A DNA stretch of 64,000 nucleotides from Candidatus Omnitrophota bacterium (lineage in GTDB: Bacteria; Omnitrophota; Gorgyraeia; B26-G9), in NCBI GenBank assembly GCA_043805415.1, contig JAZDHZ010000036.1:4194-68193 (forward strand), read 5' to 3'. Shown piece by piece: positions 3,596-52,914 of this stretch. Under the pieces are notes generated by a model, which made no database searches, was not told the DNA's origin, and saw nothing but the letters and a program-made list of their open reading frames with translations. How positions within the stretch are numbered: the first letter of the stretch is position 1; every line of letters begins with the position of its first letter. A program made the translations under genes and the position numbers.

Positions 3596-4753
3596 CTATC
3601 TCCTGCGATATTTCAAACTTTTAAACGAAAAATCCTGCGGCTGTTTTCCGTTTAGCTGCAGGCTAAGCATTCCCAGCATCTGGCCATTAACAACTTCCCC
3701 CCGCCATGAAGCGGTTCCCTCTGAAGATGTTTGAATTGTTTCCCAGATAAGTTTATTTCCTTCAATAACACTAGAATAATTAATATTGGGAAATTTAAGC
3801 TGGGAAAGATATCCGGAAATAAATTTTCCCCGGATAAAACTTATAATATCCGCCCGTGCCGGCGAACCGTCAATATTAAACAGTTGAATCTGCCATTCAG
3901 TATTATTAAGATCTTTTAAATCCTGCTCAATTACTGAAACAACTCCAGTATTTTGTTTATTTATATTTTTATTATAATTAAAATATAAATAAACTCCTGA
4001 GGCAGTTAGCGTAACCAGCAATAAAGCAGCTCCCACACTCATAAAATCGTTTTTTACTCCTGATTTTTTTTCTGCTGTTTCCAGCTGATCTATTTTTTTC
4101 CGCTGCATTTCTATCTCGTCTCTAACGCTATTGACAAAATCTCTTGAACCAATTACTCCCTTACGCTGCAGCTTTTTATAATGCTTTTTAAATTCATCAT
4201 CATCCTGCATCCGCTGCATAAACTCGCTGTAATTCTCTCCCACCAATCCATTAATAATGCTTTCTATCTCATTCTTGATATCCAGTCCTCTGTCTGAGGT
4301 TTGAGCATAATCAAGATACAAACCATAACTGCTGTTCTGATCAGTTTGTGCCTGTACTGATAAATTCAACCGCTTAGGATTAAGATGCATATAGGCTGTG
4401 AGATTCAACAGGATTTGCGGATCTTTTTCCACAACCGCTGCCTTGAATCTTTCCCGGAAAAGATGGCCTTTTCGATCATAGCAGCCATTGAAATATTTTG
4501 TATAAGAAGAAGTCAGATCATGCATCAGGGTGGAAACACTTGCTTTTTTATCAACCTCAATTAATAAATGCAAATGATTATACATTAAAGTATAAGCATA
4601 AAGTTTAACTCCGTATTGGTCTTTGTATTTTTTAAGCAATTCAAAATACATCCCGTAATCCCTCGCGTCTTTAAAAATCACCTGGTTTTGCAACCCATTA
4701 CAAGTAATATAATAAACTGAATTTTCAATATACACTCTTGGCAATCTTGGCAT
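3596..4753 (-). CDS. IS200/RAYT-like HUH (Y1) domain protein fused to a linker, a single TM helix and a ~140-aa extracytoplasmic C-terminal domain. The topology resembles a ToxR/CadC-type one-component regulator.
   Basis: The N-terminus YYITCNGLQNQVIF...LYAYTLMYNHLHLLIEV matches the Y1_Tnp/RAYT HUH motif. The catalytic-Tyr region YDRKGHLFRERF matches Y-x2-R-x-G-x-LW-x-R-F. A K/R-rich segment is followed by the TM helix VGAALLLVTLTASGVYLYF and then a C-terminal domain. RBS GGAG precedes the ATG. Confidence 0.8.
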   Translation of the reverse strand: MPRLPRVYIENSVYYITCNGLQNQVIFKDARDYGMYFELLKKYKDQYGVKLYAYTLMYNHLHLLIEVDKKASVSTLMHDLTSSYTKYFNGCYDRKGHLFRERFKAAVVEKDPQILLNLTAYMHLNPKRLNLSVQAQTDQNSSYGLYLDYAQTSDRGLDIKNEIESIINGLVGENYSEFMQRMQDDDEFKKHYKKLQRKGVIGSRDFVNSVRDEIEMQRKKIDQLETAEKKSGVKNDFMSVGAALLLVTLTASGVYLYFNYNKNINKQNTGVVSVIEQDLKDLNNTEWQIQLFNIDGSPARADIISFIRGKFISGYLSQLKFPNINYSSVIEGNKLIWETIQTSSEGTASWRGEVVNGQMLGMLSLQLNGKQPQDFSFKSLKYRRR

Positions 4754-4781
4754 TACTCACTCCGTTTTTATTCCGCTCTTC

Positions 4782-4845
4782 CCTGATTATGCCTGGCACT
4801 TTTTAGGGTTTTACCTGATTATACCTGACACTTTTTAATATTCTC
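4782..4845 (-). repeat. Two tandem copies of a 32-bp element (CCTGATTATRCCTGRCACTTTTTA...) in the promoter region of the HUH-TM gene. On the coding (minus) strand the distal copy has a TATAAT -10 hexamer and the proximal copy has CATAAT.
   Basis: Direct repeat seen at 4782-4813 and 4814-4845. Minus-strand reading gives AAAAAGTGTCAGGTATAATCAGG and AAAAAGTGCCAGGCATAATCAGG immediately upstream of the RBS/ATG at 4753. Confidence 0.5.
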
Positions 4846-4875
4846 AAAAAAAAACCTCAGACAACTCGTCTGAGG
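4846..4875 (-). terminator. Rho-independent terminator: an 8-bp perfect stem (CCTCAGAC/GTCTGAGG, loop GAGTT) followed by a U9 run on the minus strand.
   Basis: The plus strand reads aaaaaaaaaCCTCAGACaactcGTCTGAGG. On the minus strand the hairpin is followed by TTTTTTTTT. It lies downstream of the wecA-small ORF transcription unit. Confidence 0.8.
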
Positions 4876-7069: not shown

Positions 7070-7149
7070 ACCCCCAATGGTCAATAGCTAATAGTTATGA
7101 ATTATGAGTTACAAGTTACGGGTTTTGAGTTTTTTAGAAATTAGTGCAA

Positions 7150-7292
7150 TTAGTAATTTGTTTTCTGTTTTCTGTTTTCTGTTTTCTGTTTTCTGCTTTC
7201 TGCTTTCTGCTTTTTGTTTTTTCTATTAGCTATGAGCTATCAGCCATGAGCCAAGCGCTTTTTGCTTTTCCTAATCGCTAAACGCTAATCGC
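7150..7292. repeat. Composite intergenic repeat element, copy A. It contains tandem heptamer arrays (TTTTCTG)x5-(CTTTCTG)x2-CTTTTTG at 7152-7207, an (AGCYATS)-type array, and the core TTTTTGCTTTTCCTAATCGCTAAACGCTAATCGCTATACGCTG.
   Basis: Read directly from the sequence. The same core recurs at ~24036-24140 and ~33571-33695. Confidence 0.85.
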
Positions 7293-7308
7293 TATACGCT
7301 GTCTTCTA

Positions 7309-8871: not shown

Positions 8872-10380
8872 TTAATTTACAAAAATCGGATTAGTGATCA
8901 GATGCAAACCAGTTGATTTAATCTCGATTCGATAAAAATCCTTTTTATCTTTTGATTTTTCCGCGGTAAACTCAATATCAAACAAATCTTTTTCTGAAAA
9001 AATCTTTATAATTTTTCCATTTTTTATCAAATACACTTGAATCACCTGATTTATTTTATTTTTATCAATAAAATGCCCTTTTATTTTAATTTTAATATCC
9101 GGACTATTCGTAATCAAAGTTTGCCCCATGACTTTAACCTCTTGGCTTTCTGGATCTTCGATTGAAAAATTGTCCAAAATAAATTCCGAGGATTTTTGCC
9201 CTCTGATTGCATATACTCTTCCTTGGTTTAAAGCGTCTAAAACCCCTTTATTGCTAAAATCATCAATTAAAACCATATTCCTTAAATCCTTTAGCGATTC
9301 CTTAAGGTCTTTGCTAAAATCAAAAGCCAGGCCAGCAATTGCCCAAACCGGCTTCTGCCTTTTTCCTTCTAAATATTCTTTAAGCACTTTATCCCAAAGC
9401 CCTCCAGGCTTTCCAATTAGCTCATATCCTTCATAAAAAACACTAAAACCCGCATAATTTCGCGTATTATAGAAATCCTGAACATGCTTTTTGGTAATAA
9501 TATCAACATATTGTGTTTTTGAACAATTTTCCGCTTCAGGATGCGCCCAGAATACCATCCCCCCTTGCTTATTCACATAATCAATAACTTTCTGATAAGG
9601 CAATACTCCTCTGTCCCCATGGTATTGGTCAAAGAGCAAAGTTTTAAACGGATAATTGTTCAAACAAAAAATTAAGCCTAAGCAGCTCAGGATAATCGCG
9701 AATATTTTCTTATTCCGATAAGCCTCAATTTCCAGAGAATTTCTAAAATATTTCTTTTTAGAATTAAAAACCAGCAGAAACCCGGTTAATAAAACCAGGA
9801 TCGGCCAAAAATTTATAATACTTTCAAGCTGATAATTTTCATATAAACTAAACCGATTTCCCACTACCGGCAAATTTGCCAAAGCTGTTTGCGAAAGCCC
9901 GATAATTAATAAATGCTTATGCGCATCATTTAGGGTGAAATTTTTAGCAAAAATACTTCCGCTCCAAAAATAAAACGGTGTGGATTCTACTCCCGGAATT
10001 ACAATTATATCTTTTGCTTTCCGGTTTATCTCCTCAATTAATTTAAAGTAGTTTTTAATACCGAAAACAGCCAGGGAATTATTCTCCACGGTTTTTTTAA
10101 TAATATTACGCAAAGGCCAAAGTCCGTATTCCCAGCGCATTATTTCCCGTTCATTAAGAATCACAATCTCAAATCCCGCTTCCCGGGCAATCGCCACTAT
10201 CTGTTCCGGAGCATACAGTCCGTCACTGATTATAGAGCTGATGTGAATCAAGGCCGGAGCTTGCTGATACTGTTCCTGAGCAAAAATATTCTGCGAAAAA
10301 GCAATAACCACAAACATGCTCACTGCCCCAACTATAGGGCCGATTAATTTGGTTTTTATTTTTTGTTTAGTTTTTTGCAT
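8872..10380 (-). CDS. Membrane protein with PHP-like (polymerase/histidinol-phosphatase) metal-dependent phosphoesterase motifs, interrupted by two TM helices. Hypothetical.
   Basis: Signal/TM at the N-terminus. Motifs IHISSIISDG and WAHPE resemble PHP family motifs. Central hydrophobic segments. The call is weak. Confidence 0.5.
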   Translation of the reverse strand: MQKTKQKIKTKLIGPIVGAVSMFVVIAFSQNIFAQEQYQQAPALIHISSIISDGLYAPEQIVAIAREAGFEIVILNEREIMRWEYGLWPLRNIIKKTVENNSLAVFGIKNYFKLIEEINRKAKDIIVIPGVESTPFYFWSGSIFAKNFTLNDAHKHLLIIGLSQTALANLPVVGNRFSLYENYQLESIINFWPILVLLTGFLLVFNSKKKYFRNSLEIEAYRNKKIFAIILSCLGLIFCLNNYPFKTLLFDQYHGDRGVLPYQKVIDYVNKQGGMVFWAHPEAENCSKTQYVDIITKKHVQDFYNTRNYAGFSVFYEGYELIGKPGGLWDKVLKEYLEGKRQKPVWAIAGLAFDFSKDLKESLKDLRNMVLIDDFSNKGVLDALNQGRVYAIRGQKSSEFILDNFSIEDPESQEVKVMGQTLITNSPDIKIKIKGHFIDKNKINQVIQVYLIKNGKIIKIFSEKDLFDIEFTAEKSKDKKDFYRIEIKSTGLHLITNPIFVN

Positions 10381-10400: not shown

Positions 10401-11564
10401 TTAATCTTTGCGTTCAGTTGTTTCCTGGATTAAATCTTCATAAATTTGCGTAATCCTAGCTATGAATACCTCAACCGAATATTTTGCTAGCACATTTTTT
10501 TTCGCGTATTGACCCATTGCTAAGCGCTGGGCAGGATTTTTAATTAACATTTCAATCGCATCAATCAGCGCTTTTCGATCACTGGGATTAACCAGTATGC
10601 CGCTTTTCCCATGTTCAACTATTTCTGGAACTCCTCCAACTTTTGTGGCAATAACCGGCACTCCCAAACTTTGCGCTTCAATAAGTACAAGCCCAACTGC
10701 TTCATTTAAAGATGCCAGCACCATTAAATCCATTGCATGCATATAGTGCATGGGATTTTCCTGCCACCCGGTAAATGTAAACCGGTTGATTAATTTATTT
10801 TCCTTTACTTTTTGTTCTAATAAACCGCGCAGACTGCCTTCGCCGACTAAAACAAACCGCGTCTGGGAAAAATTTTGGGCAACTTCCATTGCCGCTTGAA
10901 TAAAATATTCCACACCTTTGATCGGTTCCAGCCTGCCGACCATGCCGATAACGATTTCCCCTGGCTTAATCATCAGTTTATCCCTGATAGCTGTTTCAAT
11001 CTGAACTTCAGGCATTTCCATTACAGTATTAACAACTTTTATCTTATCCGGACTGCAGATCCTGAATTTCGCCAGATCAATTTTCTCAATTTCAGTAAGG
11101 GTGATAATCTGTGTGGTCAGTTTAGACAAAAATCGCTCAATTACAACAATCAGATTGCTAAACCAGAGATTAAAATATCCGTAAAAGTTATGTCCATGCG
11201 AAGTATGGATAATTACTTTTACTTTAGCCAAAAATGCTGCCACTCTGCCTAAGGCTCCGGCTTTAGCTGTATGCGTGTGCACAATATCAAATTTATGTTT
11301 TCTAAAAATAAAATACAATTCCCAAAAAGCAAGAAAATCAAAAATTGGATTAATATTGCGGCGCAGACTATTTACTTGTATCCGATTAGCTTTAATCGCA
11401 TCAAAAAAAACCTGAGTTTTCTCCGTTAAAAAAGCGCTTGGTCCGCAAATAAACCTTAAGTCAAATCTGTCTTTATCCAGGTATTGGCTTAATATCCGCA
11501 CTATATCCGGCGAACCTCCCCAATCCATGCGCGTAATAACCTGAGCGATTTTTATTTTTTTCAT
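10401..11564 (-). CDS. GT-B fold glycosyltransferase, family 4 (GT4).
   Basis: C-terminal E-x7-E region (EAQSLGVPVIATKVGGVPEIVEHGKSGILV) and an N-terminal Gly-rich donor-binding region. Confidence 0.88.
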   Translation of the reverse strand: MKKIKIAQVITRMDWGGSPDIVRILSQYLDKDRFDLRFICGPSAFLTEKTQVFFDAIKANRIQVNSLRRNINPIFDFLAFWELYFIFRKHKFDIVHTHTAKAGALGRVAAFLAKVKVIIHTSHGHNFYGYFNLWFSNLIVVIERFLSKLTTQIITLTEIEKIDLAKFRICSPDKIKVVNTVMEMPEVQIETAIRDKLMIKPGEIVIGMVGRLEPIKGVEYFIQAAMEVAQNFSQTRFVLVGEGSLRGLLEQKVKENKLINRFTFTGWQENPMHYMHAMDLMVLASLNEAVGLVLIEAQSLGVPVIATKVGGVPEIVEHGKSGILVNPSDRKALIDAIEMLIKNPAQRLAMGQYAKKNVLAKYSVEVFIARITQIYEDLIQETTERKD

Positions 11565-11567: not shown

Positions 11568-12725
11568 TTAATACCTATATAATTCCGTACACCGAATACA
11601 TGTGGCAAACAGCTGATTTGCCTTTAACATTTGGCGATATTGCACTGCTTTTTCACTGTTCCAAATATTTTTAAACTGATCCTCTCTAATATTTCCAAAA
11701 GCATATGTTGAATTAAGGCAAGGCCTTATTCCTCCATCCGGAAAAACATAAGCACATACCCAGGGACTTAAACAACGTTTAGGATATTCCTTGGGCAAAT
11801 AAGAAGGATTGTTATAATACTCTTTCAATCCCTGCTTACTAAGATTAGGATAAAAATCAACGCTAAAAGCATGTTTTTGGTTTAAAATTAACTGCATCTT
11901 AGCATAAAGCCTGTCCGGATCTATTTCCGGAGCAAAAACAAATCCCTGCCAATTATCTGAAGAACATTGTAATTGCTGATCATAAACTTTTTGCTTTTCT
12001 ATCAGATCTTGATTTAAAAAAATCAAATTATGATAAGTCAAGGAATCAGCGCCGATTTCCGCAGCCACATCAATCATTTTCTCTAACTGGAGATAATTAT
12101 ATTTGGTAATTGTGCATTGCAGGTTGATTAAAGGAAATTTAAGCCCTTTGGCTTTTTTATAACTCTGAATTTCTTTTAAGCCATCAGTAATTTTTTCAAA
12201 TAAACCCGGCATGCCGCGAATTTGATCATGCAAATCCTTGGGCCCGTCCAGAGACACATTAAGCTCATCTAAACCTGCCTGAACAATCTCAATTGCCTTA
12301 TCTTTAATCATTGCAGCATTGGTAATCATTAACACATGCATTTTTTTGGTTTTAATATATCTAATCAACTCTATACATTTAGGATAAAGCAGCGGTTCTC
12401 CGCCAAACAAAGTTATACTAGGCTTAAAATAACTTATTTGATCAATAAGATCCTGCAGCATATTAAAATCAAGTTCTTCCTTTACCTCGCCCGCAGATTT
12501 ATTTTTTGTAACTCCGCTTTCCCCCCATTGGCCGCACATCTTACAGCGCAAATTACATTTTTGGGTTAAAAACAAGGTTATTGACTCAGGATTAGGGCTT
12601 TTCCCTTTTCTCAGATAATAGGCTTTTAAAGCCTGGATTCGCTTATAGGCAATAGTTAAAGCATAAACAGGCTGTTTGCAAAATTTCGCCAGAAACCTGC
12701 GCAGATTTTTTAAAGGCAACAACAT
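11568..12725 (-). CDS. Radical SAM protein with a C-terminal SPASM (Cys-rich auxiliary cluster) domain.
   Basis: CNLRCKMCGQWG (CxxxCxxC) plus a C-terminal CLSPWVC...CLNS...CIRC cysteine array. Confidence 0.85.
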   Translation of the reverse strand: MLLPLKNLRRFLAKFCKQPVYALTIAYKRIQALKAYYLRKGKSPNPESITLFLTQKCNLRCKMCGQWGESGVTKNKSAGEVKEELDFNMLQDLIDQISYFKPSITLFGGEPLLYPKCIELIRYIKTKKMHVLMITNAAMIKDKAIEIVQAGLDELNVSLDGPKDLHDQIRGMPGLFEKITDGLKEIQSYKKAKGLKFPLINLQCTITKYNYLQLEKMIDVAAEIGADSLTYHNLIFLNQDLIEKQKVYDQQLQCSSDNWQGFVFAPEIDPDRLYAKMQLILNQKHAFSVDFYPNLSKQGLKEYYNNPSYLPKEYPKRCLSPWVCAYVFPDGGIRPCLNSTYAFGNIREDQFKNIWNSEKAVQYRQMLKANQLFATCIRCTELYRY

Positions 12726-15948: not shown

Positions 15949-17673
15949 CTATTCCTGCTCGGTTACCCTTAAGACCTCTTCTATTGTTGTAATTCCTTGC
16001 TTAACTTTTTCCATACCATCTGCTTTTAAGCTGATCATATTATTCTTAATTGCCTGTTCTTTTAATTGCTGCGCCGAGCCCCCGGCAACAATACAAGCCC
16101 CTAATGTCTCATCCACAATCAAAAGCTCATAAATCCCTAATCTACCGCGAAAACCCGTATCATTACATTCCGCGCATCCGGCTCCTTTATAAAAAATTTC
16201 CGGATAATCACGATTCTGACTAAAACCAACTGCATTAAGAGTGCTTTGATCGGGAATGTATTTTACTTTGCAATGCGTACATATTTTACGTACAAGCCTT
16301 TGGGCAATAACTGCCCTGACTGTTCCGCTAACCAGATATGGCTCAATTCCCAAGTCAAGCAAACGAATTATTGATGATAGCGCGTCATTAGTATGCAACG
16401 TGCTGAACATAAGATGCCCGGTTAAAGCTGCCCGGATAGATATTTGCGCTGTTTCAATATCCCTGATTTCTCCGACCATGATAATGTCCGGGTCCTGGCG
16501 TAAAATTGAGCGCAATCCTGTGGCAAAAGTCAAATCTACCTGCGGATTAATCTGGATTTGATTAATCCCCTGCAGCTGATATTCAATCGGATCTTCTAAA
16601 GTAATAATATTAATTTTCGTATCATTAATATAACTTAAACATGAATAAAGCGTTGTTGTCTTGCCGCAACCCGTTGGCCCGGTAACCAGGATGATTCCAT
16701 TTGTTTTCTTTAAAATATTTTTAAGCTTTTCCATACTTTCCTTAGGAAATCCCAGCTGATCAATTCCAAAATCCAGCATTTTTTTACTTAAAAGTCTAAT
16801 GCTGAGTCCTTCTCCAAATAAAGTCGGAAAAGTCGATAATCGCAGATCAACATCTTCATCAGCAAGCTTTATTTTACACCTGCCGTCCTGAGGCCGCCGG
16901 CGCTCCGCGATATTAATCCCTGCCATTATTTTTAATCGGGAAATAATAAAAACCTGTAACTGTTTTATATCCGGAGATGTTTTAGCTTCTTGCAAAACAC
17001 CATCTATCCGATAGCGAATTCGCAGTTTATCATCAAAAGGCTCAATATGTATATCAGTAGCATTTTTTTGATAAGCTTCCAGCAATATTTGATTTACGTA
17101 GTTTATAATCGAAGCGTTTTCCGCCATTTTTTCCGGAGCATCAGCAACTTGCTTTAATTGGGACAATTCAGCTTGAATACTTTCTTTTGAAGCCTTAACT
17201 AATGTTTCTACTGTCTCGGCCCCAACCCCATAATGCGTTTTAATCGCAGAGGCGATTCCTTCAGTCTTGGCTAATATCGGGGTGATCTTATAATTGGTTA
17301 GCACTTTCAACTCATCAATAACATGAATGCCGAATGGATTTCTCATTGCTACTACAAGACTAAGCCCTTGTTTTTTAATCGCAATGACTTTGTTACGATT
17401 AGCAAATTTTGCGGGTATCAGAGATATTGCTTGCGGATCAATTTCTATTTGAGTCAGGTCAATAATCGGAATATTTAAATGCTTACTATAAGCGCTAAGC
17501 AAATCATTTTCACTCAGCAGACCATTTTGGATAATAAAAGTTTCCAGTTCTTCTTGTGTTTCCGGGAAATTTGATCCGAATTTTTGCTGAAAATCATGTA
17601 CTTGCTCTTGGTTTAAAACAGCTTTTTCAATTAAAATATTAGCAATAAACTGAAAACGGGCATTAATACTCAT
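15949..17673 (-). CDS. gspE: GspE/PilB-family secretion ATPase with an N-terminal GSPII_E_N domain.
   Basis: Walker A GPTGCGKTTT, Asp/His boxes, and the tetracysteine motif CTHCKVKY...CAEC. Confidence 0.93.
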   Translation of the reverse strand: MSINARFQFIANILIEKAVLNQEQVHDFQQKFGSNFPETQEELETFIIQNGLLSENDLLSAYSKHLNIPIIDLTQIEIDPQAISLIPAKFANRNKVIAIKKQGLSLVVAMRNPFGIHVIDELKVLTNYKITPILAKTEGIASAIKTHYGVGAETVETLVKASKESIQAELSQLKQVADAPEKMAENASIINYVNQILLEAYQKNATDIHIEPFDDKLRIRYRIDGVLQEAKTSPDIKQLQVFIISRLKIMAGINIAERRRPQDGRCKIKLADEDVDLRLSTFPTLFGEGLSIRLLSKKMLDFGIDQLGFPKESMEKLKNILKKTNGIILVTGPTGCGKTTTLYSCLSYINDTKINIITLEDPIEYQLQGINQIQINPQVDLTFATGLRSILRQDPDIIMVGEIRDIETAQISIRAALTGHLMFSTLHTNDALSSIIRLLDLGIEPYLVSGTVRAVIAQRLVRKICTHCKVKYIPDQSTLNAVGFSQNRDYPEIFYKGAGCAECNDTGFRGRLGIYELLIVDETLGACIVAGGSAQQLKEQAIKNNMISLKADGMEKVKQGITTIEEVLRVTEQE

Positions 17674-17729
17674 CCTTTGAAAATCCCCCTAAAAACATCC
17701 TTTTTCTTATAATCAAATTTACATATTGT

Positions 17730-17758
17730 ATTATAACAAAATAACTTCAGTCGGTCAA
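17730..17758 (-). promoter_or_regulatory. Sigma-70-like promoter for the gspE operon on the minus strand: -35 TTGACC, 17-bp spacer, -10 TATAAT.
   Basis: Reverse complement of 17730-17758 reads TTGACCgactgaagttattttgtTATAAT, ~55 nt upstream of the gspE ATG. Confidence 0.5.
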
Positions 17759-17779
17759 TGTGATAAAAAAGGACACAAT

Positions 17780-17804
17780 GTCACCAAGACACAAAGTCAC
17801 CAGG
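17780..17804 (-). promoter_or_regulatory. Direct repeat GTCACCAAG-N7-GTCACCAGG (16-bp periodicity) just upstream of the gspE -35. Candidate activator site, shared with 33462-33486.
   Basis: Seen in sequence. A near-identical arrangement occurs upstream of the PQQ/minor-pilin operon. Confidence 0.45.
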
Positions 17805-17884
17805 TAAAAGCGTTGGGTCAATGGCTGATAGTAAAAGCTAATAATGCATAACTAGTAACTATCAAGATGATAGGCAAATTTTAC

Positions 17885-18068
17885 GCTGACACAAATTTTA
17901 TTGATGTAAACATCAATAACGGTAAATCCGCTTTGTATTCTTGGCACTTGCGGAACTCTCCCGCCTAAAAGCGGCGGGAGCAGACAGGTCCTCTCGTACC
18001 CTAAAGGCTCCCAAACGAGACTCACAGCGAACAAATTCAAAAGTCGTAACTGAAAAATTTGTCGAATC
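17885..18068 (-). ncRNA. Candidate structured RNA or rRNA-derived fragment in the znu operon 3' region. It contains a sequence resembling the 23S rRNA domain VI sarcin-ricin loop (GGUACGAGAGGACC inside a GGGAGC...GCUCCC stem), an alternative 8-bp hairpin, and a weak terminator-like hairpin.
   Basis: Minus-strand reading gives ...GUGAGUCUCGUUUGGGAGCCUUUAGGGUACGAGAGGACCUGUCUGCUCCCGCCGCUUUUAGGCGGGAG.... The universally conserved SRL is AGUACGAGAGGACC. The flanks loosely resemble E. coli 23S ~2590-2740. No protein-coding frame is convincing. Confidence 0.35.
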
Positions 18069-18071
18069 ATC

Positions 18072-18929
18072 TTAGTTATTATTGATTATTTTGGGGAATG
18101 TTGCTGCTGCAACTGAAATCACATAAAAGCCCACAGACAATAAAACGATTGTCGCACCGGAGGCAGTGCCCCAATAATAGGATACCACCAACCCGATAAC
18201 TCCTGAAACAAGACTAAAAACAACTGACCAGAATGTGTAATCGCGGGTATTGCGGCTGAAATTACGGCTGGCCGCGGCTGGTAAAATCAGCAAGGAATTA
18301 ATAATCAGCACTCCCACTAAACGAATTGAAAGCATCACTACTATAGCCAGCAATATCGTAAAGCTTGTTTCCAGCCAAAACACTTTTATCCGCCGGCTGC
18401 GGGCTAAGGAGCTGTTCACGCTGGTAAGAATCAAAGCATTTCCCGCGAAAAACCAATAAACCAGCACAATAAAAAACATGCTTACCAGAAACCTGATCTC
18501 CGCGGGGCTGACCGCGAGAATATCTCCGATAAGATAGGTTGTGTATTTTACAAATCCTCCCTGACGGCTTAAGATCGTTATTCCCAAAGCTACCATAAAC
18601 GCGAGTAACACTCCGAGAATTGTATCAGTGGAAGCGCGGGTCAGTCCTTTGAGGATATTAACAAAAACCGCCAAAAATACAGCCAGAATAATCATCGGCA
18701 AAGTCGGGTCATGAAACCCGCATAAAACTCCGATAGCCAGCCCGGCAAGCGCCGAATGGCCAAGCACATCGGTAAAAAAAGCCAGCCGATTGCTGACAAC
18801 CATGGTGCCGAGCAAAGCATAAACCGGAGTAATTACCAGTACAGCCAAAAGCGCGTTTTTCATAAAAATATAACGCGCCCAATCAAAAGGCAGAAACATA
18901 TCAACTAACTTATACCAGATCTCGATCAT
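18072..18929 (-). CDS. znuB: ABC-3 family metal (Zn/Mn) transporter permease, ZnuB-like.
   Basis: ~285 aa polytopic membrane protein in an operon with the ZnuC-like ATPase and the ZnuA-like binding protein. Confidence 0.82.
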   Translation of the reverse strand: MIEIWYKLVDMFLPFDWARYIFMKNALLAVLVITPVYALLGTMVVSNRLAFFTDVLGHSALAGLAIGVLCGFHDPTLPMIILAVFLAVFVNILKGLTRASTDTILGVLLAFMVALGITILSRQGGFVKYTTYLIGDILAVSPAEIRFLVSMFFIVLVYWFFAGNALILTSVNSSLARSRRIKVFWLETSFTILLAIVVMLSIRLVGVLIINSLLILPAAASRNFSRNTRDYTFWSVVFSLVSGVIGLVVSYYWGTASGATIVLLSVGFYVISVAAATFPKIINNN

Positions 18930-23389: not shown

Positions 23390-23803
23390 TTACTTAAAGC
23401 AAGCGTCACATATGCCGTTAACCTGCATAAAATGGCTAACAACTCTATAACCATTGATCTTCTTGGTGTCATTAATCGCGCAATCATTGATTTCGTCAAC
23501 CTTGCCGCACTTAATACAAGTGATATGATGATGGTGGTAACCGCTGTTAACAGCTGAACAAAGCCCGTAATGCTTCTTGCGATCGAATTGTTGTATACGT
23601 GTTAGGATTCCGCAATTAGCAAGACTCTCAAGATTTCGGTATACGCTCGGCAACCCGCATTGATCAAAATCCTTGCGCAATTCATTCCAGACTTCTTCGG
23701 GTGTTAAATGGCTATCGCAGTAAATAAATAACTCAACAATCGCTTTTCTGCGGGGTGTTAGCTTTAACCCATTCTCTCTTAATCTCTCTAAATAGTTATC
23801 CAT
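23390..23803 (-). CDS. zur: Fur-family metalloregulator, probably Zur.
   Basis: Winged HTH plus HHHHxxCxxCG and a C-terminal CxxC. The start was set at MDNYLERL, preceded by AAGGA. It heads a divergent locus with znuABC nearby. Confidence 0.82.
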   Translation of the reverse strand: MDNYLERLRENGLKLTPRRKAIVELFIYCDSHLTPEEVWNELRKDFDQCGLPSVYRNLESLANCGILTRIQQFDRKKHYGLCSAVNSGYHHHHITCIKCGKVDEINDCAINDTKKINGYRVVSHFMQVNGICDACFK

Positions 23804-24035
23804 GTTTTTCCTTAAATAGAAATTATTTCTGTTTATAATATCACCTAAAAAACACCTTGTCAATTAAATTAAGTTTGTTTTTAGCTTTGTTCGCTCAGTG
23901 TCCAAACTGGCAAAATAAAACCCTTGCAACTTATTACGTTACAGGCTTAGAATTTGACTCCCCAAAAATACAAAACGTATTTACCCCAATTTATGAGAAG
24001 CTTAAAAATTCCCCCATCATCTTTGACAAAGTTCG

Positions 24036-24140
24036 CTTTTCATGCTTTTGTTTTTCTGCTTTTGACCATCAGCCATCGACTATTAGCTATAAGCCAAGCG
24101 TTTTAAGCTTTTGTTTTTCTAAACGCTATACGCTATCCGC
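24036..24140. repeat. Composite intergenic repeat element, copy B (TTTTCTG-type, AGCYAT-type and CGCTAWW-type heptamers with the shared core).
   Basis: TTTTGTTTTTCTGCTTTTG...TTTTAAGCTTTTGTTTTTCTAAACGCTATACGCTATCCGCTATACGCTG matches copies A and C. Confidence 0.8.
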
Positions 24141-24162
24141 TATACGCTGCTTTCTTGAACTC

Positions 24163-24251: not shown

Positions 24252-24461
24252 ATGAACCTTAAAATTAATAATCTAGCCAAAGAATTAAATGTCTCGATTC
24301 AAACCATTAAGAACTATGAGACTTGGGGGATTTTGCCTAAAGCCAGGCGCGATGAGAAAAAATGGCGCTATTATACAATAGAAGATGTTTTAAAAATAAA
24401 AGCCTTGTTTGCTGAAGAAATAAAACAAGATCTCAATAAACATAAAAAGAGAGCGCAATAA
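24252..24461 (+). CDS. Small MerR-family HTH protein (69 aa, DNA-binding domain only).
   Basis: LAKELNVSIQTIKNYETWGILP...WRYYTIEDV fits the MerR-type HTH. It is the first gene of the plus-strand pilus-machine operon. Confidence 0.55.
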   Translation: MNLKINNLAKELNVSIQTIKNYETWGILPKARRDEKKWRYYTIEDVLKIKALFAEEIKQDLNKHKKRAQ

Positions 24462-25225
24462 TGATTATTGCCGTGACCAATCAAAAAGGCGGAGTAGGAA
24501 AAACCACAACCACAATTAATTTATCTGCCTCTTTGGCTGTCCTGGGATACAGAGTATTAGTTATAGATCTGGATCCTCAGGGCAACTCTTCTGACGGCTT
24601 AGGCATTGATACAAATAAGCTGGACAATACTATTTACGACGCGCTGATAAATGATACCCCCTTAAGTGACATTATTATTCCCAATCAGCTGCGAAATCTT
24701 TTTATTGCTCCGGCGAATATCAGCCTGTCGGGAGCAGAAACTGAACTTGCCTCTGATATTTCTCGGCCGTTTAAATTAAGAAAATCGCTTCGTCCCGAAA
24801 TATCAAAATACGATTATATCATCATTGACTGTCCTCCTTCCCTGGGCATACTTACGGTCAATGCGATTGTGGCCAGTACTGATTTAGTTGTTCCGATAGA
24901 ACCCAGCAGCTATGCTTTAAAAGGCATGAGCATGTTAATGAGCACTATTCTTAAGATAAAGGATGATCTGGAACATTATGTGCGCTTTATGGGTGTGGTT
25001 ATTAATATGTATGACGAATCAATCCCTTTACATTCATCGATTACCGAGGCAATTATCGAGTATTTCACAGCCCGCAAGGTATTTAATTCAAGAATTTATC
25101 GTGACCCCAAAATACCGGAAGCGGAAATTCATGGGCAAAGCATCCAGCAATATGCCCCGGAAAATCCAGCAGCGCAGATGTTTATGGCCCTGGCAAAAGA
25201 AGTGGATAAAAAAGCAAATGAGTGA
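24461..25225 (+). CDS. parA: ParA/MinD/Soj-family P-loop ATPase. No ParB is present.
   Basis: KGGVGKTTTT deviant Walker A and IIIDCPPS. Its stop overlaps the pilM/N start by 8 nt. Confidence 0.88.
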   Translation: MIIAVTNQKGGVGKTTTTINLSASLAVLGYRVLVIDLDPQGNSSDGLGIDTNKLDNTIYDALINDTPLSDIIIPNQLRNLFIAPANISLSGAETELASDISRPFKLRKSLRPEISKYDYIIIDCPPSLGILTVNAIVASTDLVVPIEPSSYALKGMSMLMSTILKIKDDLEHYVRFMGVVINMYDESIPLHSSITEAIIEYFTARKVFNSRIYRDPKIPEAEIHGQSIQQYAPENPAAQMFMALAKEVDKKANE

Positions 25226-27032
25226 TAAAAATAAAGATAAAATCAATGAGGTTGTGAAATCGAAAATTAAAGGATTGGGCCTGGATGCTCTTTTCCATCA
25301 AGTAGATATAACTCAAAAAGATGCGCAAAAAGACACAAGGAAAAAGCCGATTAATTCACAGGATGAGCTAGCGCTTATTAAAAAAATCAGCCGCGGCGTT
25401 CCGCTTAAATATCATAATCCTTTGCCTAAGCTAATTTACACTTTCTTGGCAAATTTTAATGCTAAAAAAACTGATAATAGAATTATCCTTGATATTGGAT
25501 CTAGCAGCATCAAGATAATGATTCTAAAGTATGACAAGCAAAATATTATCCTTCAAGATGCTATTTTCATCCCAATCCCGCATATTGTCACAACAACCGA
25601 AGAAAAATTAAGTAATTTCATCAAAAAAAGCATCATGCCCATAGCCAAGAGTCCCTTATTTAAAAATTCTTCGATTCTCACGCTACTTTCCCGCAACACA
25701 ATGATTGTAAAATTCATTAGTTTGCCGACAATCGAAAAACAAGAAATAGAAAAAATGCTTTCATTTGAAGCAGAACAGCATTTGCCTTTCCCCCTTTCTG
25801 AGATTGAGATGGATTATCAGATTATTTCTCAAGATCCACCTGAGAGCAAAGTGATTCTTATTGCCGCGAAGAAATCTGTAATCAAAGAGCATCTAAACCT
25901 GCTTGAAACTTTAGGTTTATATCCAGATAGCATCAAAGTAAGTTCTATCGCGCTTTATAATAGTGCTTTATCTCGGACAAGAAAATCCGGGCTTTATCTG
26001 CAAGTACATATCGGCGCCGTACATACTGACATAAACATCATTTATAATAATCAATTGAGCTTTTGCCGAAATATTGCCTGGGGATCAAAAGACCTAACTC
26101 TGCGCTTAAGTAAAAACCTTAATCTAAGTTTTGACAATGCCCAAAAATTAAAACATGAAAACGGAATTATTATCACAAAACAAGAAGCAAATGAAATTCA
26201 AAAAAATATTTCTCTAATCTCCGCTAAATGGGCCGATGATCTTATCTTAGAAATTAATCGTACGCTAGAATCTTTTCAGATAAATACTGGTAAAAACGAC
26301 ATCCAACAGCTAAATTTGAGCGGCGGCGGAGCTTGTTTGATAAATTTCAATGAATACTTACGCGAAAAACTAAAAATAAAAACAGCAATGGAAAAGCCTT
26401 TGCCTTTAGAGGGAAACTCTTTGGTTATTAATAATTACGAGAAACATTCTCAAGAATTTCACCTTTGCACTGGACTGATAAACAAAGATCCGCAAGCTGG
26501 TTATTTAAATTTTAATCTTGTTCCTGAGAATATTAAGCATGCGATAAAAGCCAAACAACTAAAAATCAGGCATTTAACCTATATTATTATTTCATTAATT
26601 ATCGGATTGTCTTTGTTTATATTCCCAGCGTGGTTATTATCCTCAAGAGATAATCATATAAAAGATTTAGACAAACAACTAGAGGATTTAGAACCTGATT
26701 TATTAGTTGTTTCTCAATTGCGGGATCGGATTCAAACAATTGAAGATTATGTCGGGGCTAAAAACTCCTGTATGGAAGTTTTACGTGAAATCAGCATAAT
26801 TGTCCCCTATGACATAACAATCAATGATTTTGCCTTTGAAAAAAATGAATCCGTGATTCTTTCAGGCATCGCTCAATCTCATTCTTCGGTGGTAAATTTT
26901 TCTCAACAGTTAAATGAATCAGCTTCATTGACTGATGTGAAAATTGTATTTAGCAGAAAAAAAGGACTGCCTGGAGAAGAAATTATTGATTTTGAGATTT
27001 TTTGTAAAATAAAAAATAACGAGGACAAGTAA
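25218..27032 (+). CDS. PilM (actin-like ATPase fold)-PilN fusion, i.e. a GspL-like assembly protein.
   Basis: The ORF track begins at 24963 inside parA. The start was moved to MSDKNKD at 25218. An N-terminal PilM-like domain (ILDIGSSSIKIMIL...) is followed by a TM helix (LTYIIISLIIGLSLFIF) and a PilN-like coiled-coil periplasmic part. Confidence 0.8.
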   Translation: MSDKNKDKINEVVKSKIKGLGLDALFHQVDITQKDAQKDTRKKPINSQDELALIKKISRGVPLKYHNPLPKLIYTFLANFNAKKTDNRIILDIGSSSIKIMILKYDKQNIILQDAIFIPIPHIVTTTEEKLSNFIKKSIMPIAKSPLFKNSSILTLLSRNTMIVKFISLPTIEKQEIEKMLSFEAEQHLPFPLSEIEMDYQIISQDPPESKVILIAAKKSVIKEHLNLLETLGLYPDSIKVSSIALYNSALSRTRKSGLYLQVHIGAVHTDINIIYNNQLSFCRNIAWGSKDLTLRLSKNLNLSFDNAQKLKHENGIIITKQEANEIQKNISLISAKWADDLILEINRTLESFQINTGKNDIQQLNLSGGGACLINFNEYLREKLKIKTAMEKPLPLEGNSLVINNYEKHSQEFHLCTGLINKDPQAGYLNFNLVPENIKHAIKAKQLKIRHLTYIIISLIIGLSLFIFPAWLLSSRDNHIKDLDKQLEDLEPDLLVVSQLRDRIQTIEDYVGAKNSCMEVLREISIIVPYDITINDFAFEKNESVILSGIAQSHSSVVNFSQQLNESASLTDVKIVFSRKKGLPGEEIIDFEIFCKIKNNEDK

Positions 27033-27033
27033 T

Positions 27034-27561
27034 ATGCATTGGCTAAAAAGTAAACCAATCCTGGTTTTAAGCGCGAGCATCATTGCTATTATTCTGGTTT
27101 ATATCGCCATAATCAGTCCTTTTTTAACAAAATGGAAAGAACAAGATACTCAGATCAAGCAGAAATTAGCCTTGATTGAGAAAAGCCAGGAAATAATTAA
27201 GCAGCAAGGCGATTTGAATGAGTCTTATTCTATTATAAACCGAAAAATACAAGCTAAGCTGCCCTCTGAGCGAGGGCAAAGCAATTTTTTAACTGCCATT
27301 GGAGAAGTTGCCAAAAAAACAGATATTCATATTGAATCGATGAATCCGCAACCCCTAAGAGAGTTGGGGTTTTCTAATGAATTATCCGTAGAAATAAACA
27401 TGGAAGCAAATTTGGGTAATATTGTGCGCTTTCTTTATGAAATGAGAAAATCATCGGTTGTCCTGGTTGCCAACCGTTTAAAGTTACAACCTAAATCAGA
27501 ACGCTCAGCATTATTAAAAGGTCATTTGGTTATTTCAACCATATTTTTAAAGGAGCAATAA
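27034..27561 (+). CDS. PilO/GspM-like bitopic assembly protein.
   Basis: An N-terminal TM helix followed by a coiled-coil and a ferredoxin-like C-terminal region, in the position between pilN and pilP. Confidence 0.55.
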   Translation: MHWLKSKPILVLSASIIAIILVYIAIISPFLTKWKEQDTQIKQKLALIEKSQEIIKQQGDLNESYSIINRKIQAKLPSERGQSNFLTAIGEVAKKTDIHIESMNPQPLRELGFSNELSVEINMEANLGNIVRFLYEMRKSSVVLVANRLKLQPKSERSALLKGHLVISTIFLKEQ

Positions 27562-27562
27562 G

Positions 27563-28156
27563 ATGCCCAGCGATAGAAATAACATGATTAAAAAAATTAC
27601 AAACCAAATTCTCCTGTTTTTGATTTTTCATATCGCGTCTTGCCTTGCTTGTCTTGCTCAATCCGCAGAATCGGATTTATTAGTTGAAAATGACGCGGCT
27701 TTTAATTATTACAAAATAATCGAACAAAGGAATTTTTTCCGTCCTAAAAAAGACCTAAAAAAAGCCGAAACCGAGTTAACGGAAAAAACCCAAAAGCCGG
27801 AAAAAGACAGTTTGGATTTTATTCTTACCGGGGTTATTGAAAGTAAAAATGGATACAAAGCAATTGTTGAGCAAAAAAGCTCAAAAAAAGGATTTTATGT
27901 CTCGGTTAATGAAGCAATTGAAAACTATACAGTTAAAGCAATCATGCCCAATAAAATTTTGATTGAAAAAGATGGTCAGGAATTTGAATTAAAGTTACAG
28001 CAAGGCAGTCAGCAAAAAGAGCAGGCCGCACCTCCCGCGATAACAGCGGCTGATTCTGCTCAACAAACTAATAATGAAGAAACACAACCAACTCCACAAA
28101 CTTTAAGAGAAAATACAATACAACAAATCCGGTCTGGCACTAGGGGGACAAAATGA
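27563..28156 (+). CDS. PilP/GspC-like protein with an HR domain.
   Basis: Signal peptide. The C-terminal segment GYKAIVEQKSSKKGFYVSVNEAIENYTVKAIMPNKILIEKDGQEFELKL fits the PilP/GspC HR-domain pattern. It overlaps the secretin start by 4 nt. Confidence 0.55.
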   Translation: MPSDRNNMIKKITNQILLFLIFHIASCLACLAQSAESDLLVENDAAFNYYKIIEQRNFFRPKKDLKKAETELTEKTQKPEKDSLDFILTGVIESKNGYKAIVEQKSSKKGFYVSVNEAIENYTVKAIMPNKILIEKDGQEFELKLQQGSQQKEQAAPPAITAADSAQQTNNEETQPTPQTLRENTIQQIRSGTRGTK

Positions 28157-29931
28157 AAAAATATAAAATAGTTTTTATTGGGGCATTACTCTTGCTGATA
28201 TTTAATCCCTTAAATATCTTTGCTCAGGAATACACTGAGACAAGCGCGGAATCTGAGGACCTAATTTCTTTAAGTTTTCAGGATGCTGATATAAATCAAG
28301 CGATAAAGGTATTAGGCGATTTAACCGGTACAATAATAATTCCCAATGAAGATCTAAAAGGCACGATTTCCATAGTAAGCATGGAAAAAGTTAAACCAGA
28401 CACAGTAATTAATGTCCTGGAGAGCGCGTTAATGATCAGAGGATTTACCGTGGTAAAATCAGGAGAAGCTTTAAAGATAGTCCCTATCTCTGATATTAAG
28501 CAATCAAATGTCGAAGTTCAAATCGGAAGCTGGCCTGGGTTTATAAAAGATCAGGATATTGTGATTACACAAGTAATGCCGCTGAAATACTCTTCGGCGA
28601 TTAAAATTAAGAATGAACTTCAATCCTTAATCGGAAAACATGGAAATATTCTGGCTAATGAACGCACAAATACTATTATTATAACCGATAGCTCTTCAAA
28701 TATAAAACGCTTAGCTACTATAATTTCCCAGGTTGACCGGCCTTTGCCTGCCGCGATGCAAGTAAAAACATTTGTGGTTAATTATGGCGACGCGGTAAAA
28801 ATAGCAAAAATTTTAAATGACCTTTCCAAAGAAGATAAAGAGGCCAGATATCCGGAATTCAGTGAGCTTGGTTTAGGCGATATTCCTTTAGAGGTTTTTG
28901 GCGGAATAGAAGCTTACTCTGAGGAAGAAACAAATTCGATAGTGGTCGCTACTGCTCTGGTTAACTTCCCGGCCATTGAGCGTTTAATAAATAAACTCGA
29001 TGTCTTCCCTCCGCAAGCAATGATTGAAGTAGTGCTTATGGATGTTACCCTAAGTGATGATTTAACCATGGGAGTTGAATATGGTTCCTCAACTAACCCA
29101 ACACTTACAACCGAAGGAATTAAATCCGGGAGCAATGATCAGAATATATTCCACTCTCTGCTTAATTTATCGACTGAAGCTTCCACGCAAGGATTTACTT
29201 ATCGAATTTTAAGTCAAAATGAGCGGACCAATCTCTTGGGATTTATTTTAAAAACTCAGGAAAATACTAAGGTCCTGTCTACTCCCCGGATTTTAGCATC
29301 AAATAACCAGGAATCTTCGATTACTGTGGGACAGGAAATTCCGATTATTGAATCATCAGTCACGGATTTAGTTAATAATGTTACAACCGTGAATTTTAAA
29401 TACCAGGATGTCGGGCTGGGACTTAAAGTCACTCCGCGCATAAGCCAGGATGGTTTTGTTAATTTAAAAGTTCACGCTGAGTTAAAAGACTTAAGCGCTA
29501 AAACTTTATTTGACGCGAGTATCATTAATAAACGCGAAGCCAATGCCACTGTTATGGTCCCGGATGGATATACGGTTGTCCTTGGCGGGCTAATGCGTGA
29601 CAATGATAGTATAATTGAAAACAAGGTGCCTTTACTTGGGGACATCCCTTTTTTAGGGAATTTATTCAAGAAAACTAAAACCACAACATTAAAAACAGAA
29701 CTGCTTATATTTCTCAGTCCCAAAATACTTAAAAGCATAAAAGAACTTCAGGAAATTACCCAAGCATCTAAAGATAAACTGGATATTATCGGACAAGCGC
29801 AAACAACTCAAGAGTTAAAATCAGCTGTAAAAACTACCGTTGATCCTAAGGCTAAAAAACTAATCAAGGAAAACCAAAAAATAAAGAATAAACATAAGAA
29901 AAATAAACTGGAAAAAGAAGAGAAAAAATGA
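28153..29931 (+). CDS. Secretin (PilQ/GspD family) with a Lys-rich C-terminal tail.
   Basis: Signal peptide, N-terminal secretin domains, and the C-terminal secretin signature VVLGGLMRDNDSIIENKVPLLGDIPFLGNLFK. Confidence 0.9.
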   Translation: MKKYKIVFIGALLLLIFNPLNIFAQEYTETSAESEDLISLSFQDADINQAIKVLGDLTGTIIIPNEDLKGTISIVSMEKVKPDTVINVLESALMIRGFTVVKSGEALKIVPISDIKQSNVEVQIGSWPGFIKDQDIVITQVMPLKYSSAIKIKNELQSLIGKHGNILANERTNTIIITDSSSNIKRLATIISQVDRPLPAAMQVKTFVVNYGDAVKIAKILNDLSKEDKEARYPEFSELGLGDIPLEVFGGIEAYSEEETNSIVVATALVNFPAIERLINKLDVFPPQAMIEVVLMDVTLSDDLTMGVEYGSSTNPTLTTEGIKSGSNDQNIFHSLLNLSTEASTQGFTYRILSQNERTNLLGFILKTQENTKVLSTPRILASNNQESSITVGQEIPIIESSVTDLVNNVTTVNFKYQDVGLGLKVTPRISQDGFVNLKVHAELKDLSAKTLFDASIINKREANATVMVPDGYTVVLGGLMRDNDSIIENKVPLLGDIPFLGNLFKKTKTTTLKTELLIFLSPKILKSIKELQEITQASKDKLDIIGQAQTTQELKSAVKTTVDPKAKKLIKENQKIKNKHKKNKLEKEEKK

Positions 29932-29977
29932 GTTGATGTTTGTTTAAATATAATATATATTAAAACAAGGTGAAATT

Positions 29978-30145
29978 ATGGACAAAAAAGATCAAAAGCC
30001 AAAACAGAAAAAAAAGTATCAGCCGCCACGCGTTGATACTCGGGAAATTTATGAAATAAACGCGTTAGGCTGCGCTAAATGTGTTAATGCTAGCAGCATC
30101 TCGCTGAGTGTCAGCTGTGTTCGCGGATCAAAAAAATATTCCTGA
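29978..30145 (+). CDS. Possible small protein (55 aa): a Lys-rich N-terminus followed by a Cys-containing C-terminus.
   Basis: RBS AAGGTG 5 nt before the ATG. Sequence MDKKDQKPKQKKKYQPPRVDTREIYEINALGCAKCVNASSISLSVSCVRGSKKYS. It is below the ORF-track size cutoff and has no family support. Confidence 0.25.
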   Translation: MDKKDQKPKQKKKYQPPRVDTREIYEINALGCAKCVNASSISLSVSCVRGSKKYS

Positions 30146-33403: not shown

Positions 33404-33461
33404 ACAAACTCCTCGATTATAGTATAAACTCTAAACAGTAAATTATAAACATAAATAACAA

Positions 33462-33490
33462 GTCCCCAGGACAAAAGGTCACCCGGTCAC
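33462..33490 (-). promoter_or_regulatory. Direct repeat GTCCCCAGG-N7-GTCACCCGG(+GTCAC) upstream of the PQQ/minor-pilin genes, the same motif family as 17780-17804. TATAAT-like -10 elements lie downstream of it.
   Basis: Seen in sequence. Same 16-bp periodicity and orientation as the gspE-upstream copy. Confidence 0.45.
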
Positions 33491-33570
33491 AAGTAAACAG
33501 CCAACGGTCGATAGTCAATAGCCGATTCGTTAGGCAAAAATTCTCTTTGAGCGGCGGTCTAGAATCAAGC

Positions 33571-33695
33571 ATTTTTGTTTTTCTGCTTTTCCTAATCGCT
33601 AAACGTTTATCCTGAGCAAAGTCGAAGGGCTATTCGCTAATCGCCGCTTTTTTTGTTTTTCCTAACCGCTAAACGCTAATCGCTATCCGCTGCTT
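33571..33695. repeat. Composite intergenic repeat element, copy C. It has two core copies (...TTTTTCTGCTTTTCCTAATCGCTAAACG... and ...TTTTTGTTTTTCCTAACCGCTAAACGCTAATCGCTATCCGCTG) and abuts the giant gene stop.
   Basis: Read directly from the sequence. Matches copies A and B. Confidence 0.8.
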
Positions 33696-52640: not shown

Positions 52641-52702
52641 TTTACCCTTCCCCACCAACATATTTAAATACTATTTATAATTGATATAAAACACTAAACT
52701 AA

Positions 52703-52722
52703 TCAAGCAATTAATGTGCCAA
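52703..52722 (-). promoter_or_regulatory. Sigma-54 (-24/-12) promoter for the giant gene: TTGGCAC-ATTAA-TTGCT on the minus strand.
   Basis: Reverse complement of 52705-52724 reads TATTGGCACATTAATTGCTT. It has the GG-N10-GC spacing and a near-consensus TGGCAC/TTGC. It lies ~65-80 nt upstream of the MRNYFF start codon (52638-52640). An NtrC-type activator is encoded 1.2 kb upstream. Confidence 0.6.
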
Positions 52723-52883
52723 TATGGATTATAAAAACATGTTTTACCAAACTCATAACATCTTAATTTTAAGCACTTTATGAATAGCGATTTTTAGTAA
52801 ATAATTTACAATTCAAATTAAATTAAATAAGTGTGTAAATATCACCTCATTGTGTATTATTTTACACGCTTAACACAGTAAAA

Positions 52884-52914
52884 CTAACATTTCAAGCAAT
52901 GCTCATTATGTTAT
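52884..52914. promoter_or_regulatory. 29-bp imperfect palindrome TAACATTTCAAGCAATGCTCATTATGTTA (left copy). It overlaps the 3' end of the HUH-HTH gene, ~180-210 nt upstream of the giant-gene sigma-54 -24 element.
   Basis: Outer TAACAT/ATGTTA and inner AGCAATGCT dyad symmetry. A 28/31 match to the copy at 53844-53874. Confidence 0.5.

Follow-up and report, generated by a model that had tools for sequence, protein, structure and literature searches.

The two pilus operons and their upstream arrays

The stretch of DNA analysed here, a 64-kb window from a Candidatus Omnitrophota bacterium, carries on its minus strand two operons with pilus-type genes, the first encoding the ATPase, platform and pseudopilin, with gspF and pseudopilin genes after gspE, and the second a propeller protein and minor pilins. 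An initial annotation, made from the sequence, had placed a promoter TTGACC-17-TATAAT before the gspE operon, nine-mers with a 16-bp period just upstream of it and a second site of the same kind at 33462-33486. The promoter is present at 17758-17730 on the minus strand, and direct reading together with TRF, which returned a period of 16, bore out the coordinates, the period and the second site. The features at gspE are as follows.

15949-17673, minus strand: gspE/pilB-like ATPase gene (MshEN and T2SSE in a Pfam scan), the first gene of its operon
17730-17758, minus strand: gspE promoter TTGACC-17-TATAAT (11/12 matches, TG before the -10)
17759-17770, minus strand: T-tract spacer TTTTTTATCACA between the array and the -35, read from the sequence
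17771-17802, minus strand: site 1 array, on the gene strand (17802 to 17771) TGGTGACT TTGTGTCT TGGTGACA TTGTGTCC
17803-17811, minus strand: leader GCTTTTACC, kept in the window, L001 and L099

Site 1 is composed of a 16-bp unit present twice, or an 8-bp subunit present four times, each 16-mer being made up of the subunits TGGTGACn and TTGTGTCn on the gene strand, and the consensus of the unit on the coding strand is TGGTGACC-TTGTGTCC. TRF described 17772-17802 as 1.9 copies of period 16 with 93% matches, and a repeat finder gave 15-nt copies with 93% identity. The plus-strand letters of 17780-17804 are GTCACCAAG-ACACAAA-GTCACCAGG, and the nine-mers seen at first are cores inside the longer 16-bp unit. 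The consensus proposed for them, GTCACCNGG, held in part: two of the four nine-mers fit it literally, whereas the first ends in AAG and one has GTCCCC. The array contains direct repeats only, with no inverted terminal repeats, and the leader looks like a degenerate edge unit of it.

The 17-nt spacer of the gspE promoter is GACTGAAGTTATTTTGT, and the promoter is kept in 7/7 genomes compared, including the spacer core GAAGTTATT. The full core GAAGTTATTTTG is found in six of the seven, with one T->C change in L104. Such conservation of the core (window 17736-17752; L001, L095, L097, L099, L102, L104) is unusual for a promoter spacer, and GTTATTTATG, similar to the gspE spacer, stands before the TATAAT of the propeller gene; the spacer core may be a second shared operator inside both promoters.

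The second array lies upstream of the propeller gene.

32270-33403, minus strand: PQQ-like beta-propeller protein, 377 aa, with pilin-like genes following down to 30153
33442-33447, minus strand: TATAAT, the inferred best -10 candidate of the propeller/minor-pilin operon, preceded by GTTATTTATG
33461-33492, minus strand: site 2 array, from 33492 to 33461 TTGTGACC GGGTGACC TTTTGTCC TGGGGACT
33493-33501, minus strand: leader GCTGTTTAC, counterpart of the site 1 leader GCTTTTACC by direct reading

Site 2 has the same orientation as site 1 and each consists of four 8-bp subunits; the plus-strand letters of 33462-33486 are GTCCCCAGG-ACAAAAG-GTCACCCGG. The end of site 2 is 59 nt from the start codon of the propeller gene and 14 nt from the TATAAT (33447-33442), upstream of which no -35 element is recognisable. 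The pentamer centres lie near -51, -59, -67 and -75 relative to the -10 at site 1, and near -29, -37, -45 and -53 relative to the best -10 candidate at site 2. This offset of ~21.5 bp corresponds to two helical turns, which may or may not be meaningful.

A degenerate and weak candidate for a third copy is found in the upstream region of the mini-MerR operon, which is described below.

24016-24031, minus strand: candidate third copy GCGAACTTTGTCAAAG

Its counterpart in the related genome JAHITE (L001) reads CTGTGACCTTGTTAAAG. The 9-mer GTGACCTTG occurs three times in 21 kb of JAHITE, always intergenic, in the pilus cluster and on one strand, and the third of these copies is in the mini-MerR/gspE spacer. 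Two of the GTGACCTTG copies in L001 were considered as a target-site duplication and rejected, since they do not abut the ends of an element.

Specificity of the repeat within the window

The pattern of the initial annotation, for which 0 occurrences are expected in shuffles, was built post hoc from the same data. As an independent probe we took from the related assemblies L100/L102 the exact 16-mer TGGTGACCTTGTGTCC, which stands upstream of gspE there. In the window this probe scored 15/16 and 14/16 at site 1 and 14/16 at site 2, and a score of 14 was reached in 5/300 block shuffles of the whole window. When it was compared with 12 other upstream regions on the sense strand, the propeller region gave 14/16 and the remaining 11 gave no more than 10; a score of 14 was reached in 0/3000 shuffles. 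The pattern GTGAC-N2-4-[GT]TG[AT]C occurs in the 64-kb window at sites 1 and 2 only, in both cases on the gene strand, and 500 kb of unrelated gspE loci contained no more than two occurrences of a two-pentamer pattern. Within the sequence examined the motif is limited to the spacers of the pilus cluster. A plain 32-mer comparison of site 1 with the window was not significant (21/32, matched by 35/200 shuffles), and an unbiased enumeration of 7-mers in the upstream regions was dominated by the generic TAGCG and AGCAGAA repeat families and not by the array motif. The resemblance between site 1 and site 2 is real and non-random.

The flanks of the two sites had also been described as similar, and this point did not stand, as the similarity comes from low-complexity period-7 families that are common in the intergenic regions of the window and are not promoter-specific.

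7146-7302, 24117-24150 and 33661-33692: period-7 repeat families, intergenic in the window

Arrays in related genomes

The closest genomes are Candidatus Omnitrophota MAGs, and the comparison at gspE covered the window, L100/L102, L001 (JAHITE), L099 (JAHITY), L095, L097 and L104. A metagenome scan with the GspE alignment and generic peptide patterns returned only relatives of 46% identity or less. In the relatives the pilus cluster runs in one direction through the giant protein, the propeller and the minor pilins, the convergent part holds the secretin, pilO, pilMN, parA-like and mini-MerR genes, and gspE is divergent from the mini-MerR gene. In the window, znuABC and other genes separate gspE from the mini-MerR operon (24252-29931). 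The arrays, with the GspE identity of each relative, are listed below.

Window, upstream of the gspE -35: two 16-bp units
L100/L102 (GspE identity 82%): TAGTGACT TGTGACA TGGTGACC TTGTGTCC
JAHITE, L001 (85%): TGGTGACC TTGAGTTCC
JAHITY, L099 (86%): TTGTGACC TTTGTCC
L095 (90%): a different 8-bp array (CGTKAAC), CCGTGAAC TCGTTAAC CCGTTAAC TCGCGAAC
L097 (89%): array absent, a dispersed-repeat fragment abuts the -35
L104 (74%): array absent, palindrome GTTCTTTACT-N12-AGTAAAGAAC
JAHITE, upstream of the propeller gene: TTGTGACC TTGTAAC TTGTGTG
JAHITY, upstream of the propeller gene: TTGTGTCC TTGTGAC TTGTGAAC, then TTGTTATTTA as in the window

Four of the seven genomes have the motif upstream of gspE, in a varying number of copies (1, 1, 2x16 bp and 3+1 subunits), and three have it before the propeller gene. 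The four subunits of the window and those of L100 arose by different duplications, and neither L100/L102 nor L095/L096, two pairs of near-identical assemblies, shows any difference in array or copy number within the pair. Where an array stands at the gspE position, it is 12 nt from the -35 in 4/5 genomes. All three relatives without the motif (L095, L097 and L104) retain an intact gspE promoter, and judged by these sequences the array is dispensable for it. Upstream of the propeller gene, clusters of TTGTGAC-like heptamers were detected in the window (P=0.0005), JAHITE (P=0.007) and JAHITY (P=0.008); they are absent there from L012 (72%) and L014 (59%) and, over 83 nt of propeller upstream sequence, from L103. 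The distance from the site 2 array to the ATG is 59 nt in the window, ~155 nt in JAHITE and ~17 nt in JAHITY.

The conservation of the array exceeds the neutral level. When the window is compared with JAHITY, JAHITE and L102, the four-fold degenerate sites of gspE show an identity of only 48-51%, which is near saturation. The proximal unit (17771-17786) is identical at 15/16 positions between the window and L100/L102, and the promoter together with the proximal unit shows 93% identity over 57 nt. At site 2, BLAST could not align the rest of the spacer between genomes and the array persists there, and the GTGAC/GTGTC core is retained at both loci in three genomes. Because the silent sites are nearly saturated while the unit is conserved, and because the site 2 array outlasts a spacer that is otherwise unalignable, the core unit appears to be under selection.

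Candidate binding proteins

Inside the conserved pilus cluster only one DNA-binding protein is encoded, a very small MerR-type protein that we call mini-MerR.

24252-24461, plus strand: mini-MerR winged-helix protein, 69 aa (MerR_1/MerR match), heading the operon of the parA-like, pilMN, pilO and secretin genes

For this reason it is the only candidate binder within the cluster, and we treat its binding to the array as a candidate interaction only. The model of mini-MerR has a winged helix and one C-terminal helix (pLDDT 77), and its best structural matches in Foldseek are canonical MerR heads and the RacA DNA-binding domain. The protein has 69-72 aa, with 93-97% identity among close relatives and 63% in L014, the most distant, and among the close relatives it is more conserved than GspE (93-97% vs 81-90%). 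Whether or not a genome has the array, the sequence of mini-MerR is the same and its recognition helix is invariant; since the protein is unchanged in the genomes that lack the array, no co-variation backs a link between the two.

At 24252-25225 the mini-MerR gene is directly followed by one for a ParA/MinD-like ATPase, and the two genes head the pilMN-pilO-secretin operon. Just after the secretin there is a conserved Cys-containing small ORF of ~55 aa (window ~29975-30145, plus strand), the counterparts of which are called genes in L011, L012, L014, L098 and L101-L103. Radical SAM/SPASM genes are found at 11568-12725 and 57211-58239, and the ~55-aa ORF may be the precursor of a modified peptide.

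The initial annotation had named the NtrC-type response regulator among its candidate regulators.

53883-55262: NtrC-type regulator, with an adjacent histidine kinase (the pair spans 53883-57227)

It is unlikely to be the binder, since the gspE promoter is of the sigma-70 type and not of the sigma-54 type that is needed; a canonical sigma-54 promoter, TTGGCACATTAATTGCTT, stands instead before the giant gene. This promoter, next to the genes of the NtrC-type regulator and the kinase, is located in 52662-52910 (minus strand), ~40 nt before the 4286-aa giant ORF, and the palindromes GTGTAAAATAATACAC lie ~110-150 nt further upstream. The window also encodes a Fur-family protein.

23390-23863: Fur-family gene near znuABC, ~200 bp upstream of znuA, four ORFs between

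No ribbon-helix-helix gene was found among the Pfam-scanned genes of the window and no LytTR gene was seen in the window.

Comparison with known systems

BldC of Streptomyces, a 68-aa MerR-like winged-helix protein, binds variable numbers of direct repeats in a head-to-tail manner (PMC5859096). The array resembles its sites in being made of tandem direct repeats whose number varies between promoters (here one to four subunit pairs, over sites and genomes), and the pilus cluster likewise encodes a MerR-type winged-helix protein that is very small and has neither an effector domain nor a long coiled coil. The repeat sequences differ, as the BldC repeat is AATTNNNN(C) and that of the array T[GT]GTG[AT]Cn. 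A phmmer search of mini-MerR against PDB sequences (E<=1) gave no match to BldC, and BldC was outside the top 50 Foldseek matches. In our view BldC may serve as a useful working model for mini-MerR, which is not a claim of membership.

Operators with tandem units of 7-8 bp are also known for ribbon-helix-helix proteins, such as the met-boxes of MetJ, the tetramer boxes of ParG with their 8-bp period and the omega heptads. The array shares with these operators the short tandem subunits of 8-bp period, the variable number and the location at or next to promoters, but MetJ boxes are palindromic whereas the array units are directional, and the unit sequences are unrelated to those of ribbon-helix-helix operators.

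The PilR sites upstream of Pseudomonas aeruginosa pilA are tandem N4-6(C/G)TGTC repeats, and PilR acts on sigma-54 promoters; in PilR/NtrC enhancers generally the tandem sites are 80-150 bp upstream of the sigma-54 promoter. The window similarly has tandem (G)TGTC repeats upstream of a pilus gene and encodes an NtrC-type regulator, but the period here is 8 bp and not 9-11 bp, the gspE promoter TTGACC-17-TATAAT is of the sigma-70 type and no GG/GC element follows either array. We also considered the repeat itself as a sigma-54 promoter, which has GG at -24 and GC at -12 (e.g. TGGCAC-N5-TTGC), and rejected it, since TGGTGAC-TTTG-TGTC has TC where GC is required.

AlgR, which belongs to the LytTR type, controls the fimU-pilVWXY1E minor-pilin operon and, as an idea, offers a parallel for a propeller (PilY1-like) and minor-pilin operon with a regulator site of its own. 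LytTR sites (AlgR/AgrA), however, are two 9-bp direct repeats separated by 12-13 bp with a period of ~21 bp, whereas the nine-mers here are 7 bp apart and have a period of 16 bp. The direct repeats of OmpR/PhoB-type response regulators are one helical turn (10-11 bp) apart, in contrast to the subunit period of 8 bp and unit period of 16 bp of the arrays.

Interpretation of the arrays

The proposal of the initial annotation that the motif is a common activator site for both operons was upheld in part, for the sharing of the site but not for the activating role. A tandem motif in the same orientation that is shared beyond chance, recurs at both loci in the relatives and is conserved in comparison with silent sites is what a shared cis-regulatory site predicts. 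On the other side, the two sites lie at different distances from the -10, the JAHITY array ends ~17 nt before the ATG and three relatives are without the motif; the 8-bp period, which does not match the helical repeat, is a further point against an operator. We infer from the sequence that the repeat is probably a protein-binding control site, and we consider the chances evenly balanced that the two pilus operons share in it a tandem operator of 8/16-bp period that is restricted to this lineage.

The operator would consist of head-to-tail 8-bp subunits T[G/T]GTG[A/T]Cn, paired into the 16-bp unit, and would adjoin the promoters of the ATPase/platform/pseudopilin and propeller/minor-pilin operons of one pilus/type II-like machine. 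A DNA-binding protein would probably load on the tandem subunits as a cooperative, directional multimer, and the bound multimer would modulate RNA polymerase at both promoters, by activation or by repression, so that the motor and the tip module would be expressed together. The number of units would change by replication slippage, and the two 16-bp units of the window would represent one such duplication. A more specific version, which we regard as improbable, is that mini-MerR, like BldC or Xis, builds a head-to-tail polymer along the 8-bp subunits and forms, with the ParA-like ATPase, a partition-like module coupling the transcription of motor and tip, and possibly their placement; if true, this module would act in a host-attached nanobacterium. 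The Omnitrophota are uncultured and to our knowledge nothing is known of their gene regulation, while pili and giant surface proteins are believed to serve them in attaching to hosts. If true, a conserved operator of motor and tip would provide a synthesisable DNA probe for the first regulator of the pilus machinery and a sequence tag for the prediction of regulons in related MAGs.

The main rival is that the arrays are neutral by-products of slippage, with the two sites alike through one duplicated spacer segment and no regulatory role, an explanation that we consider unlikely. Slippage products are common here, because these genomes have intergenic regions packed with further short tandem arrays and with dispersed fragments, including many other period-7/8 arrays in the window. 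The copy number differs among the relatives, the site 1 duplication is 93% identical, both arrays have degenerate edges, and the leaders GCTTTTACC and GCTGTTTAC are similar too, which suggests common descent; in addition, L095 has a different 8-mer array at the gspE position, and the three relatives without the array keep their gspE promoter. If the arrays were neutral, however, one would expect those lying 16 kb apart to drift to different units, yet three genomes still have the GTGAC/GTGTC core at each of the two loci. The window and L100/L102 agree at 15/16 positions of the proximal unit, where silent sites are only ~50% identical, and in the sequence examined the motif occurs in pilus-cluster spacers only. 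It is mainly because the core unit seems to be kept by selection that we place a functional site above neutral slippage. Should the arrays be neutral repeat DNA after all, they would be a warning that short tandem arrays filling spacers can resemble binding sites.

Variation in the number of units among the relatives, the location upstream of genes for a surface organelle and a perfect (CTTGTGT)x4 inside the JAHITY pilus operon (L101 9465-9490) are features that a contingency repeat could also account for, in which gain or loss of an 8- or 16-bp unit would shift upstream elements relative to the promoter and switch pilus expression in a phase-variable or graded manner. A close example is the 7-bp repeat upstream of the hmw adhesin genes of Haemophilus influenzae. 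Contingency repeats are characterised by a long perfect run and polymorphism within a population, whereas the arrays have 2-4 imperfect copies, too few for high slippage rates, and the agreement in copy number within L100/L102 and within L095/L096 argues against rapid phase variation; we regard this explanation as quite improbable. We give slightly less credence still to the units being promoter elements, that is, -35-like hexamers or alternative sigma sites in stacked or decayed promoters. GTGACC is one base from the gspE -35 TTGACC, the JAHITE propeller upstream region has TTGTGA 16 nt before TATTAT, and site 2 of the window has no other -35, but none of the units in the window is 16-18 nt from a -10-like hexamer and the gspE array lies wholly upstream of a complete promoter. 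For sigma-54 the spacing fails, as TGGTGAC-N4-TGTC is without the -12 GC, and the canonical sigma-54 promoter is elsewhere in the window. Finally, we find it most improbable that the array is a piece of a larger mobile repeat of the MITE/REP type, inserted by chance upstream of both operons, a possibility that the initial annotation had raised against its own reading. The spacers do contain mobile material: both are mosaics, the pieces 33531-33556 and 33650-33692 are found again, in either orientation, in the window and five relatives, the relatives match 17863-17958 at 95-98% identity, with a fragment of it inverted in L102, and the window has two genes for IS200-like Y1 transposase-domain proteins. 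The array segments themselves, unlike these neighbouring pieces, have no dispersed copies by BLAST, they are direct repeats lacking inverted terminal repeats, and they stay attached to the promoter while the mobile pieces around them come and go.

Dispersed repeats and other features of the spacers

The non-coding block 17863-17958, within 17850-18071 on the minus strand, is 95-98% identical in JAHITE and JAHITY, far above silent sites. The region 17850-18071 has inverted-repeat-like ends (17866-17882 and 18055-18071) and a hairpin at 17958-17980 in place of which the relatives have a different one, and it is a 37-nt fragment of 17863-17958 that is inverted in L102. With no Rfam match and a fold z-score of -2.4, the block could be a small RNA or a MITE. 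A 72-aa ORF at 17852-18070 was rejected as a gene, as it has no Pfam match and its frame is broken by indels in L001. Rfam gave no match in the window at gathering thresholds and none in 17600-18120 at E<=1, and a tRNA search of the window found none.

Period-7 arrays (CTAAnCG x4, TGTTTTC x9) occur directly after stop codons at 7146-7302, 24117-24150 and 33650-33692 and in L095 at 10672-10715; they share 93% identity between loci and constitute a dispersed low-complexity element. The piece of 24-26 nt at 33531-33556, GGCAAAAATTCTCTTTGAGCGGCG, is found in both orientations and in L095, L097, L101, L102 and L104, and is part of a ~170-nt MITE-like element seen in L099, L100 and L104. The perfect (CTTGTGT)x4 of L101 9465-9490 has the same core as the TTGTGTC subunit and is placed between pilO and the next gene, or within the N-terminus of a 205-aa ORF call. 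The window has no REP elements of the TGTAGGGGCG type, which were seen in L011, L014 and L101. GC-rich palindromes starting with TGTAGGG, for example TGTAGGGGCGGTCCTTGTGCCCGCCC, are present at L011 ~9810-9840, L101 15290-15390 and L014 9880-9970; they are REP-like, lie upstream of the propeller gene in these relatives and have no copy in the window.

The two IS200-like Y1 transposase-domain proteins are encoded on the minus strand at 3596-4753 (385 aa) and 52911-53801 (296 aa, plus an HTH), and a link between them and the dispersed repeats is possible. Just ahead of the first of these genes, within 4754-4850, AAAAAGTGYCAGGYATAATCAGG is present twice in tandem.
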